Shown in pieces: positions 30,274-59,234 of a DNA stretch of 64,000 nucleotides. A program made the position numbers and the translations under genes. This DNA comes from Acidimicrobiia bacterium (GTDB lineage Bacteria; Actinomycetota; Acidimicrobiia; Spongiisociales; ZC4RG35): positions 66,623 to 130,622 of the forward strand of contig CBDCRL010000001.1 in the NCBI GenBank assembly GCA_965220995.1. The letters are read 5' to 3'. Every line of letters starts with the position of its first letter. Position 1 is the first letter of the stretch. The notes beneath the pieces were generated by a model, which had not been told where the DNA came from, made no database searches, and worked only from the letters and a program-made list of their open reading frames with translations.

Positions 30274-31491
30274 CTATTGGTGATCGGGAGCGTACAGGTG
30301 CCCCATGCGGGACGCCTTGGTCTCCAGGTAACGGCGGTTTTGATCATTGGGGGCCACCGCCAAGGGAACCCGTTCCCGGATGGTGAGGCCGTAGCCCTCG
30401 ATGCCTGCCCTTTTGACCGGATTGTTGGTCAGAAGGTGCATCGACCGGACCCCCAGGTCATAAAGAATCTGGGCGCCCACCCCATAGTCGCGGGCGTCCA
30501 CCGGCAGCCCCAGTTTCTGGTTGGCCTCCACCGTGTCCAGACCCTGATCCTGCAGGTTGTAGGCGTCCATCTTGGGAAAGAACCCGATTCCCCGGCCCTC
30601 ATGGCCGCGAATGTAGAGCACCACCCCCCGGCCTTCCTCGGCCACCTTGGCCATGGCCAGGTTCAACTGCTCCCCGCAGTCGCAGCGAATACTCCCGAAA
30701 ACATCGCCGGTGAGACATTCCGAATGCACCCGCACCAGTACGTCTTCACCGTCCCCGATCTCCCCCGCCACCATGGCGACGTGCTGGCGGCCGTCCACCA
30801 GAGACCGGTATCCGAAGGTCCGAAACTCCCCCACTGCGGTGGGAATACGGGCGCTGACCACCCGCTCAACAAGTTTGTCCTCGGTTCTGCGGCGATACTC
30901 GATAAGATCTGCCACCGATCCGATCAGCAGGTCGTGTTCTTCGGCGAATACGGCCAGGTCCTCGAGCTTGGCCACCTCGCCCTGGTCGTTCATGACCTCG
31001 GCGATCACCCCCGCCGGGTACAACCCGGCCAACCGGGCCAGATCGACCGCCGCTTCGGTATGCCCGGCTCGTCTCAAAACCCCTCCGGGCTGATAACGAA
31101 GTGGGTAGACGTGACCGGGACGATCAATATCGGCCGGGCGGGTCTCGGGATCGATCATGGTCCGCACCGTCCTGGTCCGGTCGGCGGCCGATATCCCGGT
31201 GGTTACGCCGTGGCGGGCGTCAACGGCCACCGTAAAGGCGGTCCCCAGGTCGGAGGGGTCCTTGCGAGGAATCATCAGGGGTATTTCCAGTTCGTCCAGC
31301 CGCTCCCCGATGATCGGGAGACAGATGATGCCGCTGGTATGTCGGATCAGAAAGCCCATCTGCTGGGGGGTGATCTTCTCGGCGGCCATGATCAGATCCC
31401 CCTCGTTCTCCCGATCCGGATCGTCCACCACGATCACCATCCGACCATCCCGCATCTCGTCGAGCAACTCAGGAATAGAAGCGAATTTCAA
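30274..31491 (-). CDS. ribBA: Bifunctional DHBP synthase / GTP cyclohydrolase II
   Basis: [48 protein letters not shown] and LLTNNP. Confidence 0.97.
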
Positions 31492-32081
31492 GTGCGCAAC
31501 CCCAAAAGCCTTTCCACATACTTGGCCAGGATGTCCACTTCAAGATTAGCCCGGTGACCCACCGCCCAATTCCCCAGGGTGGTGACCTCCAGGGTGTGAG
31601 GGATCAGTGCGACCTGAAAGGACCCCCGATCCACCGCGGTGACCGTCAGAGCCACTCCGTCCACCGCCACCGAGCCCTTGTAGACCAGATACCGCTCCAA
31701 TCCGTCGGGAACCGAAACCGAGACCCGTTGGCCGTCACCCTCCGACAGGATCTCTTCCACCACCCCCACCCCGTCAACATGCCCCTGCACTATGTGTCCG
31801 TCCAGCCTTCCACCGATGGGCAGAGGGCGCTCCAGGTTGACCGCCGAGCCTCCGGCCAACCCGTCCAGGTTGCTTCGAGCCAGGGTCTCAGCCACGGCCT
31901 CCACCCAGAATCGGGGAGGTTCGACCCGCACGGCGGTCAGACAAATCCCATTGACCGCCACCGACCCGCCCACCGGCAGTCCTTTTGTGGTGCGGGGAGC
32001 CGCAATCCCCAAACGCTTCCCCCGATCGGTCCCGCGGCAGTCCACCACTTCGCCCACTTCGCCCACTATGCCCGTAAACAT
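31488..32081 (-). CDS. ribE: Riboflavin synthase (alpha chain)
   Basis: [31 protein letters not shown] and [10 protein letters not shown]; GAGGAGG RBS. Confidence 0.96.
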
Positions 32082-32124
32082 CAATCCTCCTCAGAGCCTG
32101 CGCGGGTAGGTGATTTGGGGAGGG

Positions 32125-32352
32125 TCGCGAAAAATAGGATGGCCGATGACTTGACTTTGTCCCCGAGGCGCCACACAGTGATACAAGTCAAGCACCTCCC
32201 GGTCTGTTCCGACGTCGACCAGACCGGCCGCAGGGAACATATCCTCGGGAAAGCGAAATCCTGTTCTGCGTGACGGATTCGCGTCCCGACCCCAGGAAAG
32301 GTGGTGGCGGGGGAGGGCCCTCGGGACAGAAATTTCAGGGCCGTTTTCGCGA
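32125..32352 (-). ncRNA. Candidate structured cis-regulatory RNA of unknown family between ribD and ribE
   Basis: Outer stem 32125-33/32344-52 encloses four hairpins; an anti-SD-like CCCUCC lies just 3' of it; no FMN aptamer consensus recognised. Confidence 0.45.
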
Positions 32353-32392
32353 AATAGCGTCTGATTTCACAAGTTCTCATTGCCGCCCGACC

Positions 32393-33472
32393 TTACCCGC
32401 TATCCCTCTTGGAACGTCTCCACGCCACTCTCAGGTCCGCCCCCACGCGTCGCACATCCTCGATCTTGATCCCGCGGGCATCCGACAGGGTGGTAAACGG
32501 CCCGCTCATCACCGGCAGTCCTTCTCCCCCGGCCATGCGCGCCGCCAGATAGAACACGCCCCGATCAATCAGTCCGGCTCTCCACAAGGCGCCCGCCAGC
32601 CGGGGACCTCCCTCCACCAACACCTCCAAGATACCCCGTTTTCCCAGGGCCGAAGCCGCCGCCGACAGGTCCACCAGCCCGTCTCGACCGGGCGCCACAA
32701 TCTGCCGCCCCTCGGCAAATCCCTCCACCGGGACGGGGACCACGATCAGTGGTTGTCTCTCCCAGAGTTGGCGAATCTCGGGCAGAGGGGCGCCCCCGGC
32801 CACCACCACCGCCTGAGGTTGAGGACCCTCATGGCCCGGGATCCGAACCGTCAGCCGGGGATCGTCGGCCCGCAGTGTCCCGGCGCCCACCATCACCGCA
32901 TCAGCCGCCGCCCGCAGACGATGGCCGTCCTGCCGGGCCTTTGGGCCGGAAATCCATTGAGAGGTTCCATCGGAAGCGGCCATCCAGCCGTCCAGGGTGG
33001 CAGCCGCCTTGAGAGTGAAGAGAGGTCGTCCGGTGCGCCGATGATGAAAATAACCGGGATCGGCTTCTTCCACCTCATCGGTGAGGATCGGTCCGTGTAC
33101 CTCCACACCGGCGGACTCCAGTATCGCCCTGCTCCGTCCGGCCACCCGAGAATCGGGATCGAGGGCGCCCACCACCACCGACGCCACCCCCGCAGTCATG
33201 ATGCGATCAACACAGGGAGGGGTCCGTCCGTGGTGCACACACGGTTCCAAGGTGGTGACCACCACCCCGCCCCGGGCCCGCTCTCCCGCCTCATCCAACG
33301 CCAGCACCTCGGCATGGGGACCACCCGCACCCCGGTGAACGCCACTTGACACCTGCCGTCCCTCCGAATCGAGAACCAGGGCGGCCACCCTGGGATTGGG
33401 ATGCGGGTGGACCGAAACAGCCATGGCCAAGGCCCGGCGCAGGAGACGGCGCTTGGGAGCAACGGCGATCAT
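32393..33472 (-). CDS. ribD: Riboflavin biosynthesis deaminase/reductase RibD
   Basis: PNPRV, HAE, TLEPCVHHGRTPPC, KAAATLDG and VLVEGG; start approximate. Confidence 0.95.
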   Translation of the reverse strand: MIAVAPKRRLLRRALAMAVSVHPHPNPRVAALVLDSEGRQVSSGVHRGAGGPHAEVLALDEAGERARGGVVVTTLEPCVHHGRTPPCVDRIMTAGVASVVVGALDPDSRVAGRSRAILESAGVEVHGPILTDEVEEADPGYFHHRRTGRPLFTLKAAATLDGWMAASDGTSQWISGPKARQDGHRLRAAADAVMVGAGTLRADDPRLTVRIPGHEGPQPQAVVVAGGAPLPEIRQLWERQPLIVVPVPVEGFAEGRQIVAPGRDGLVDLSAAASALGKRGILEVLVEGGPRLAGALWRAGLIDRGVFYLAARMAGGEGLPVMSGPFTTLSDARGIKIEDVRRVGADLRVAWRRSKRDSG

Positions 33473-33479
33473 GGCGGCG

Positions 33480-34172
33480 CTAGACCCCCGACAACGACAG
33501 GGTGTCGGCGATGGCCATTCGCAAGTCCTCCGCCGCGCGCCTTGGGTCGGACTGACCGAGAATGGCGGTTCCCGCCACAAATACATCTGCGCCGGCGGCG
33601 GCGGCCAGGGGAGCGGTGGTCACATCGATACCTCCGTCAATTTGCAGGGCGGTCTGAAGTCCTTCCTGGTCGATCCAAGCTCGGATGGTCTCCACCTTGG
33701 AAAGAGTGGCCGGCATAAAACTCTGCCCGCCGAACCCCGGCTCGACCGACATCACCACCACCATGTCCAGATAGGCAAGATGGGGACGCACCACCGAAGC
33801 GGGAACCGCCGGGGAAAGGGCCAGCCCGAATTGCAGTCCCAACTCGTGGGCGCGGCGGATAGCCGGAGCAGGATCGGGACACACGTCGGTGTGCACAGTG
33901 ACGTGATCGGCGCCCGCCTCGGCGAGCGGCGCCAGGAGATCGAGAGGCCGGGAAACCATCAGGTGGCAATCAAAAAAGCTGGTCAGGCCCGGACGGACCC
34001 ATTCGATCACCGGAGGGCCGAAGGTCAGGTTGGGAACGTAAACGCCGTCCATCACATCCAGATGGAACATGTCGACCACCGGGGCCACTGCCTGCATCTC
34101 CGATCGGAGACTCCCCAGATCAGCAGCCAGGACCGAAGGGGCCACGCGAAACTTTCGGATCACAGGCTCCAA
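33480..34172 (-). CDS. rpe: Ribulose-phosphate 3-epimerase
   Basis: APSVLAAD, HLDVMDGVYVPN, DCHLMV, MSVEPGFGGQ and IDGGI. Confidence 0.97.
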   Translation of the reverse strand: MEPVIRKFRVAPSVLAADLGSLRSEMQAVAPVVDMFHLDVMDGVYVPNLTFGPPVIEWVRPGLTSFFDCHLMVSRPLDLLAPLAEAGADHVTVHTDVCPDPAPAIRRAHELGLQFGLALSPAVPASVVRPHLAYLDMVVVMSVEPGFGGQSFMPATLSKVETIRAWIDQEGLQTALQIDGGIDVTTAPLAAAAGADVFVAGTAILGQSDPRRAAEDLRMAIADTLSLSGV

Positions 34173-34191: not shown

Positions 34192-35112
34192 TCATCCGGC
34201 GGTCAGAAATCCCAGCTTGCCTCTCACCCCCCTGGCCCAGGCCGCAGCCGCCATCACTCTCTTACCGGACGGTTGGATTTCATCGAGGATCAAGGCGCCC
34301 TCGCCGCTGCCGCACCACACTTTTCCGTCCGTTGAGGCCAACTCCCCCGGCCGCAGGGGAAAAGGGGGGTCTGTGAAGAAGCGGGCTGACAGGATCTTCA
34401 TCCGGTTTCCCTCCCACCGGGCGTAAGCGCCGGGACGGGGCGCCAAGGCCCTCACCTGCCGGGCCAACTCCTGCGCCGGTCGGTGGAAGTGCATTTGGGC
34501 GTCTTCCGGTCGCAAACGGGGTGCGTAGGTGGCGTCCCGCTCCAACTGAGGCTTTTCCTTCCAATCCCCCGCCCAAAGGACCGGCCATTGCTTCGCCAAC
34601 AGTTCCGCTCCCAGAAGCGACAGCCGTTCGGTCAGGGTTCCCCGGTTGTCCTCGCCACTGATCGGAACGGAGACGGAAGCCAGCACGGGACCGGTGTCAA
34701 GACCTTCGGTGATGCGCATCAGGCTCACACCGGTCACCGGATCACCGGCCGCGATGGCGGCCGCCACCGGCGCCGCTCCCCGCCAGCGGGGCAGGAGGGA
34801 AAAGTGAACATTCACAAAGCCCAACTCGGGTATTTGCAGCATCGCCGGAGTGAGAAGCATCCCATAGGCCACCACCACCCCCATCCGCAGTGGACCCACC
34901 GACCGCAACGCCTGCTCCAATTCTCTCCGGTTCTCCGGGCACGCCACCGCCAACCCCAATTCGATGGCGGCTTTCTTCACCTCCGAGGGGGTCCTTTTGG
35001 ACGATCGCCCCCGTCGTCGGTCTCCCCGGGTTATCACCAGGGCGATCTCACTGCGCTGCGACAGAGCACGGAGAGGGGGAACCGCCGCCGCGGGGGTTCC
35101 CAGGAAAACCAC
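34192..35112 (-). CDS. fmt: Methionyl-tRNA formyltransferase
   Basis: FLGTP, VVAYG, NVHFSLLPRWRGAAP and GLDTGP. Confidence 0.96.
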   Translation of the reverse strand: MVFLGTPAAAVPPLRALSQRSEIALVITRGDRRRGRSSKRTPSEVKKAAIELGLAVACPENRRELEQALRSVGPLRMGVVVAYGMLLTPAMLQIPELGFVNVHFSLLPRWRGAAPVAAAIAAGDPVTGVSLMRITEGLDTGPVLASVSVPISGEDNRGTLTERLSLLGAELLAKQWPVLWAGDWKEKPQLERDATYAPRLRPEDAQMHFHRPAQELARQVRALAPRPGAYARWEGNRMKILSARFFTDPPFPLRPGELASTDGKVWCGSGEGALILDEIQPSGKRVMAAAAWARGVRGKLGFLTAG

Positions 35113-59150: not shown

Positions 59151-59234
59151 TGTCGGAGGAGGGACTTGAACCCTCACCCTCCTTGGAGGACTAGGCCCTC
59201 AACCTAGCGCGTCTGCCATTTCCGCCACTCCGAC
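59151..59234 (-). tRNA. tRNA-Leu (GAG)
   Basis: GTCGGAG/CTCCGAC acceptor stem, TGGCGGAAATGGCAGACGC D-arm, CTAGG-TTGAGGG-CCTAG anticodon arm, long variable arm and GGTTCAAGTCC. 3' end reads CCG, so CCA is not fully encoded. Confidence 0.96.

Follow-up and report, generated by a model that had tools for sequence, protein, structure and literature searches.

The spacer between ribD and ribE in an Acidimicrobiia genome is probably one copy of a dispersed, structured and non-coding element

The riboflavin genes of an Acidimicrobiia bacterium raise the question of what the 308-nt spacer between ribD and ribE is, and whether it belongs to the control of ribE at all. In the window, as we call the whole stretch of 64,000 nt that was analysed, the gene map places fmt (34192-35112), rpe (33480-34172), ribD (32393-33472; 359 aa, from its ORF and Pfam context), ribE (riboflavin synthase, 31488-32081; 197 aa, from PF00677 relatives) and ribBA (30274-31491) in this order on the minus strand, with 7 nt from the rpe stop to the ribD ATG. 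The spacer (32085-32392, minus strand) has a GC content of 59% versus 63.5% for the window. An earlier note on this DNA, made from the letters alone, had read it as a multi-stem RNA-like element where an FMN riboswitch might be expected, and had proposed a novel riboswitch or attenuator for ribE, with an independent ncRNA or MITE as the fallback. It had recognised no FMN riboswitch, and we likewise found none anywhere in the 64-kb window using Rfam at the gathering score, at which a tRNA gene (59151-59234, minus strand) was the sole match; between 31900 and 34000 no Rfam family matched at E<=10. A consensus scan of 31900-32600 gave no sigma-70-like promoter and no intrinsic terminator. The ribD-ribE-ribBA genes seem to share a transcript with fmt-rpe, in which no riboflavin sensor can be recognised.

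We compared the ribD-ribE junction among graded RibE relatives, which came from a search of proteins with RibE as the query; fetching loci by RibE from genomes and from metagenomes gave, among the matches listed, only relatives of at most 60% identity. In L162 (RibE 88%), L165 (82%) and L163 (81%) the junction is empty and reads ...AAGGAGGATTGATG, in which the stop of ribD and the start of ribE overlap and a spacer is missing, whereas the contigs of the closest relatives, L161 (98%) and L164 (96%), start within the spacer and contain its 3′ part. In more distant Acidimicrobiia and other Actinomycetota ribD also abuts ribE, and in those distant relatives that have an FMN riboswitch it is located upstream of ribD (86-117 bits). 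The comparison of the junctions shows the overlap of the ribD stop with the ribE start as the ancestral arrangement, and by the same comparison about 315-320 nt is inserted a few bases upstream of the ribE Shine-Dalgarno sequence in the window's lineage. Since the spacer occurs only in the closest relatives (96-98%) and is missing at RibE 81-88%, the insertion is recent. The junction therefore shows the insertion polymorphism of the MITE type, being filled in the window, L161 and L164, and empty in L162, L163 and L165.

The whole inserted element (32091-32410, minus strand, about 315-320 nt) is bounded by its similarity to a second copy, L166:4824-5149, and continues to 32410, into the end of ribD, so that the extent given in the earlier note was too short. 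The last five codons and the stop of ribD lie inside it. The ribD product ends in ...VAWRRSKRDSG* in the window versus ...VAWRCLKED* in L162, and its full length is 359 aa versus 358 in L163. From this comparison of termini, the last codons of ribD are shown to be replaced, and the new TAA stop to come from the inserted DNA. The ribE Shine-Dalgarno GAGGAGGA (32085-32092, minus strand) aligns with AAGGAGGA of L162, L163 and L164 and is, on this alignment, the ancestral one, kept from the pre-insertion junction. In the one filled/empty pair, motifs similar to the ancestral AAGGAGGAT flank the insertion on both sides, AAGAGGGAT to the left and GAGGAGGAT to the right; the left motif is common to the L166 copy and so may belong to the element, and no clear target-site duplication is readable from this single filled/empty comparison.

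Copies elsewhere came to light through proteins. The six reading frames of the spacer were joined and searched against a collection of 5.8 billion proteins, and the single match was an oxidoreductase (P0121) whose called N-terminus runs through the second copy. This copy (L166:4824-5149) is 88% identical to the window copy over 328 aligned DNA positions, lies in another assembly with an acyl-CoA dehydrogenase gene on one side and a gene for a pyridine-nucleotide oxidoreductase on the other, and begins directly after the acyl-CoA dehydrogenase stop; from its similarity the window copy extends over 32410-32091. Representative proteins, searched without a profile, gave the ORF of the spacer itself (P0122) and a third close copy within a mis-called protein (P0123), with yet another 3′ flank. 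The gene calls P0121, P0122 and P0123 through element copies are probable annotation artefacts. A common 5′ motif was recognised through a weak match that lies between fmt and rpe in L163.

We then used two pattern scans (the 5′ motif, then the 3′ motif) over one genome per species, with confirmation by nhmmer. Real copies were found only in metagenome-assembled genomes (MAGs) of Acidimicrobiia, and the pattern matches in other taxa failed the nhmmer profile. In all, nhmmer gave 26 further copies, 67-70% identical, in at least nine Acidimicrobiia MAGs, with matches spanning about HMM positions 35-300; at least nine copies lie in one 2.94-Mb chromosome, OY762464.1. As in a MITE, the copies are small (about 270-320 nt), dispersed and without a conserved frame. 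Many dispersed genomic copies were the finding that the earlier note had itself set against a riboswitch, and with them its fallback of an independent ncRNA or MITE turned out to be essentially right. Four OY762464.1 copies at different loci (L168, L172, L192 and L173) have diagnostic variants in common, which points to spread within one genome. No match was found in plasmid and phage collections by blastn, no copy in IMG/VR by the two pattern scans, and no second copy in the 64-kb window by blastn or by the covariance model described below. The names of several of the MAGs suggest sponge or marine sources. Separately, L167 was discarded as a false positive of a translated-frame peptide-pattern scan, as it lies inside a long ORF and is without DNA similarity. 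We also observed two identical copies with the same neighbours in one MAG (L193:3940-4285 in JAPPFD010000031.1 and L204:5882-6227 in JAPPFD010000002.1), explained either by duplication of the region or by an artefact of assembly or binning.

To describe the settings of the copies, genes around them were called with a codon-usage caller trained on the window genes, which reproduces the known gene map. The copies lie singly at about 20 contexts with no gene function in common and in either orientation: in sense between co-directional genes at seven loci, in the opposite orientation between co-directional genes at about seven independent loci, between convergent genes at four loci and between divergent genes at none. 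At about half of the loci the element is antisense to both flanking genes. The neighbours include genes for Sir2, SDR, CoA-transferase, amidohydrolases, Ddl, an AMP-binding enzyme, thiolase-like and sulfatase proteins, MFS, PafA, aminotransferase, hydantoinase B, FGE-sulfatase, HAD and epimerase. For sense copies, the upstream ORF often ends at the TAA or TAG of the 5′ extension GCGGGTA(A)GG, as in the window, L168 and L172. The element is kept in eight MAGs at the thiolase-like/sulfatase locus and in three at the aminotransferase/hydantoinase B locus. At the former, mean column identity among three genomes is 84% for the element, whereas the neighbouring gene reaches 90%; of the 277 columns of the element, 165 (60%) are invariant and clustered in blocks. 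This looks like more conservation than expected of neutral intergenic DNA, and fits a selected function better than junk.

Transposase genes were found beside individual copies, but among the 8-kb pieces no consistent adjoining transposase, recombinase or reverse transcriptase was found next to the copies, and no IscB/TnpB-like ORF adjoins any of the 26 copies. The L186 copy is truncated beside an insertion sequence (IS), and around the L185 copy there are fragments of transposases of the IS256 (Mutator) and IS110 families. As observations in their own right, an IS of about 1 kb with a 302-aa DDE transposase (PF13612/PF01609; L172:3816-4839) splits a copy at CTAG, with CTAG on both sides; a 707-aa ORF without Pfam match and with atypical codon usage (L186:26-2149) lies just upstream of the truncated copy and a DDE transposase gene; and in the stretch L185:3900-6520, which also holds those transposase fragments, a DUF222-HNH endonuclease gene ends 17 nt before the element copy.

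The copies have in common a core of about 270 nt in which invariant blocks alternate with variable hairpins. In the window this conserved core, defined by nhmmer coverage and by the invariant blocks in alignments, runs from CTTGTGAAAT..CTATTTCGCGAAAA to TTTTTCGCGACCC (32121-32373; minus strand, as for all features below). The invariant blocks are CGCGAAA (twice at the 5′ end and once inverted at the 3′ end), GGGCCCnCCCCCGCCnCCACC, GGACGCG, ATATGACCTC, CGGTCCG..GACGTCGG..CGGACCGGGAGGTG, CAATnTG, TGTGACA, CAAC and TTTTTTCGCGACCC, and the C-rich block GGGCCCTCCCCCGCCACCACC (32300-32320) is nearly invariant in all copies. Outside the core, the 5′ strand of the outermost helix P0, GGGTAAGGT (32390-32398), contains the ribD stop (TAA, 32395-32393) and is complementary to the 3′ strand ACCTACCC (32104-32111); P0 is formed in the window's subfamily, and L166, L168, L171 and L172 have equivalents of its two extensions that partly co-vary. 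Helix P1, the outer stem of the earlier note, is formed by TCGCGAAAA (32344-32352) and TTTTCGCGA (32125-32133). By a rough estimate, chance alone would give about 0.2 perfect 9-nt inverted repeats in 308 nt. The CGCGAAA of P1 is invariant in 23 of 23 aligned copies, and P1 is therefore beyond a covariation test. Three invariant 6-bp palindromes were also noted, TCGCGA (three times), GGGCCC and GACGTC, which in the window lie at 32125-32130, 32347-32352, 32315-32320 and 32211-32216, the last inside CGACGTCG in the P5 loop; proteins could bind them on the DNA, or they could serve as motifs for RNA-RNA dimerisation.

RNAalifold on a plain MAFFT alignment of 23 copies recovered only invariant pairs because the variable hairpins were misaligned, and a model from a well-aligned subset was needed. 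For the long hairpin P3 (TCGGGACGCGAATCC ... GGATTTCGCTTTCCCGA, 32245-32289), a covariance model was built from ten well-aligned copies and then used to align 23 copies, an alignment that is fitted to the model and leans towards the structure. In this model-fitted alignment, 84.7% of P3 cells were paired versus 43-50% with the partners slid, ten of the 18 pairs change on both sides, and 36 cells changed on both sides versus 13.9±3.8 in shuffles, none of 500 reaching the observed number. P3 is present in every copy with differing sequence. Hairpin P5 (CCGGTCTG...CAGACCGG, 32199-32227), with the palindrome CGACGTCG in its loop region, carries compensatory variants at its two inner pairs, one being CG in 18 copies with UA in two, and the other GC in 17 with UA and CG. 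P3 cells contain 52 G·U versus 10 A·C, and read as the other strand about 73% of the cells pair, not 85%; this excess indicates that the fold belongs to the sense strand, as RNA or single-stranded DNA, which in the window is the rib mRNA strand. Folding energies did not set the element apart: the MFE z-score of the spacer was 0.06 for the mRNA strand and -1.49 for the other strand, and the P3 region of 20 copies gave a mean z of about -0.6 in sense and about -0.5 in antisense. The support for the predicted structure is comparative, not thermodynamic, and comes from the model-fitted alignment. In the 3′ domain, two alternative partners are predicted for the invariant block GGGAGGTG (32193-32200), ACCUC in the ATATGACCTC block and CGCCnCC in the C-rich block. 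Here GGGAGGUG has two mutually exclusive invariant partners, ACCUC or the C-rich block, and as all these positions are invariant, covariation cannot choose between them.

These results allow the multi-stem fold of the earlier note to be placed in the family. Its inverted repeats are all present in the DNA, at 32125-33/32344-52 (9 nt, perfect), 32150-57/32185-92, 32199-209/32217-27 and 32283-89/32321-27, the GCGAAATCC/GGATTCGC repeat is readable in the sequence, and so are CCCGAGG (32162-68) and the two CCTCGGG copies (32243-49 and 32319-25). The fold holds in part. P1, CCGGTCTG/CAGACCGG as P5 and GCGAAATCC/GGATTCGC as the distal part of P3 recur family-wide; in single-sequence energy the spacer is no better than shuffles. 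The CTTGACTT hairpin is kept only in part among family copies, and the GTCCCGA/TCGGGAC stem is not conserved, TCGGGAC pairing instead downstream as the base of P3. The alternative CCCGAGG/CCTCGGG pairings, which were to give mutually exclusive folds, are not conserved in the family either. The covariation that the note had suggested looking for was found in P3 and P5 among the family copies, but its outer stem is invariant.

Given these data, we put at about 0.8 the probability that the spacer is one copy of a multi-copy non-coding element of about 270-320 nt, specific to a clade of uncultured Acidimicrobiia. Judged on sequence evidence, the element is probably mobile, structured and non-coding, and the family new: neither Rfam 15 nor the literature searched describes such an element, and Rfam gave no match for the window copy (E<=10) or for eight other copies (E<=5), HEARO and IS605-orfB included. 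We propose that it would spread as a non-autonomous mobile element, by way of a sense-strand RNA or single-stranded DNA, and would settle where insertion is tolerated, at the 3′ ends of genes. The rib copy would then be a passenger, co-transcribed within the fmt-rpe-ribD-ribE-ribBA message; its insertion would break the translational coupling of ribD and ribE and leave ribE dependent on its own retained Shine-Dalgarno sequence, and the element would sense neither FMN nor any rib-related ligand. Against mobility stand the inverted repeats, which are subterminal and short (9-11 nt) and not classic terminal inverted repeats: CGCGAAAA/TTTTCGCG, which is invariant, and GCGGGTAAGGT/ACCTACCCGC further out are inverted, subterminal and short, and could equally be RNA helices.

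A less likely alternative is a family of functional ncRNA genes, each with its own promoter, in which copies are kept by selection and were duplicated rather than transposed, so that the rib copy would be an expressed gene. The long invariant single-stranded blocks between covarying helices, the strand-specific G·U excess and the retention at one locus in eight MAGs and at a second in three would all suit such genes, and the palindrome CGACGUCG of the P5 loop could form a kissing dimer. However, no consensus promoter or terminator was found at the window copy, several other copies are cut short or carry an IS, presence varies between close relatives, and within operons both orientations occur. 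The ncRNA-gene and mobile readings are not exclusive, since a functional RNA may be encoded by a mobile element. The invariant unpaired blocks, the covarying helices and the strand-specific wobble exceed what a transposase-binding end needs, and the selected object may be the RNA or a single-stranded intermediate. The same features, with the retention in eight genomes, lead to a further and distinctly less likely reading, that of mobile, self-folding RNAs of a new class, such as a ribozyme, an RNA assembling through its palindromic loop, or the scaffold or guide of an undescribed RNA-dependent mobility system; selection would then maintain the copies for their RNA and not for a DNA end.

The mobile, non-coding element that we favour resembles several known repeats in part. 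Like MITEs and structured repeats such as ERIC/IRU, Correia (the Neisseria repeats), RUP and BOX, it is small and non-coding with many dispersed copies, has inverted repeats near its ends, lies between genes, at gene 3′ ends or in operons in either orientation, is polymorphic for presence and can fold as RNA; co-transcription, a trait of these repeats, would apply to the rib copy. In contrast to them, no 20-30 bp terminal inverted repeat, clear target duplication or cognate transposase was seen, and its core has unusually long invariant single-stranded blocks, covarying helices and strand-specific G·U. REP/BIME sequences are imperfect palindromes of 20-40 nt, often clustered, with a RAYT transposase, whereas the present unit is complex, about 270 nt long and single at each locus. 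As with the mycobacterial MIRUs and the Rickettsia RPEs, which are repeats of an actinobacterial or a reduced genome, the repeat lies in operons or at gene ends, follows the orientation of the genes, and its stop and start codons mesh with the neighbours: the element donates the ribD stop, and the ribD frame stays open to the ribE ATG. MIRUs, however, are tandem units of 40-100 bp and RPEs are translated in-frame inserts, whereas the element, with its one unit of about 300 nt, is on present evidence untranslated and is also found antisense to its neighbours. HEARO and the omega RNAs of IscB-TnpB are likewise structured over 200-300 nt, present in several copies per genome, provided with conserved unpaired blocks and associated with mobile DNA; in contrast, the element has no Rfam HEARO or IS605-orfB match and no adjoining IscB/TnpB, and its neighbours are ordinary metabolic genes.

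We return to the riboswitch or attenuator, in which a multi-stem leader would bind a metabolite and hide or expose the Shine-Dalgarno sequence of ribE. The element does lie directly upstream of ribE on the mRNA strand, in the leader position of a riboflavin gene that the FMN riboswitch (RF00050) may take, and the window has no FMN riboswitch; moreover, the CCCUCC tract just 3′ of the outer stem and the GAGGAGG before the ribE ATG are both present, as the earlier note had pointed out, and could pair. However, the tract belongs to the conserved 3′ tail of the element at every locus. The position is not conserved, as relatives with RibE at 81-88% and more distant ones have no element at the junction. 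Elsewhere about 20 unrelated gene pairs adjoin the element, which is often antisense to them; no terminator-like site is present, and the alternative pairings proposed in the earlier note are not kept in the family. The element matches RF00050 neither in sequence nor in structure, is unrelated to it, and is not confined to rib genes. This distribution rules out a rib-specific riboswitch or attenuator, and we regard any such control of ribE as very improbable.

Hardly credible, too, is a small protein gene in the 99-codon ORF at 32380-32081, since the frame, although open over the whole spacer, in frame with ribD, called as a protein in a public collection (P0122, 100% identical) and of an insertion length that preserves the ribD frame, has codon-position GC of 0.49/0.59/0.65 versus about 0.72/0.46/0.74 in real genes, differs among copies through frame-shifting indels that are not multiples of three, gives only mis-called extensions when all six frames are searched against 5.8 billion proteins, and owes the overlap of its TGA with the ribE ATG (TGATG) to the ancestral ribD stop. 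A type I toxin-antitoxin or other small ORF was also considered and rejected; by eye, the frames after the conserved ATATG and CAATnTG are not conserved, and there is a stop in L195.

For annotation, the spacer should be labelled neither as a riboswitch nor, in its 99-codon ORF, as a gene, and the lineage runs ribD-ribE-ribBA without a recognisable FMN riboswitch nearby. With this family, a covarying element about 270 nt long is added for uncultured Acidimicrobiia, whose 3-Mb genomes would each hold some ten copies or more. Elements of this type are signs of recent change in a genome and can rewire operons; here one insertion rewrote the ribD C-terminus and would have ended translational coupling. 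They occasionally prove to be working RNAs of mobile systems.

Some minor observations concern the rib locus and its relatives. In L163 the gap between fmt and rpe is about 1.17 kb of lower-GC DNA (L163:972-2147) versus 20 nt in the window; it begins with the 5′ module of the element, TTGTGAAAACGGACGCTAATTCGCGAAAAC, contains two ORFs (117 and 148 aa) without Pfam match, and may be related to the element as a rearranged form or as one that carries cargo. Directly after ribBA the window has an amidohydrolase gene (PF01979; 28866-30188, minus strand) and not ribH, so that ribH must be elsewhere; the 81% relative L163 has the same order. Finally, a perfect tandem duplication of 9 nt (CCACTTCGC twice, 32045-32062) lies inside the 5′ end of ribE and gives GEVGEV in the N-terminus of RibE, and L161 and L164 have this duplication too.
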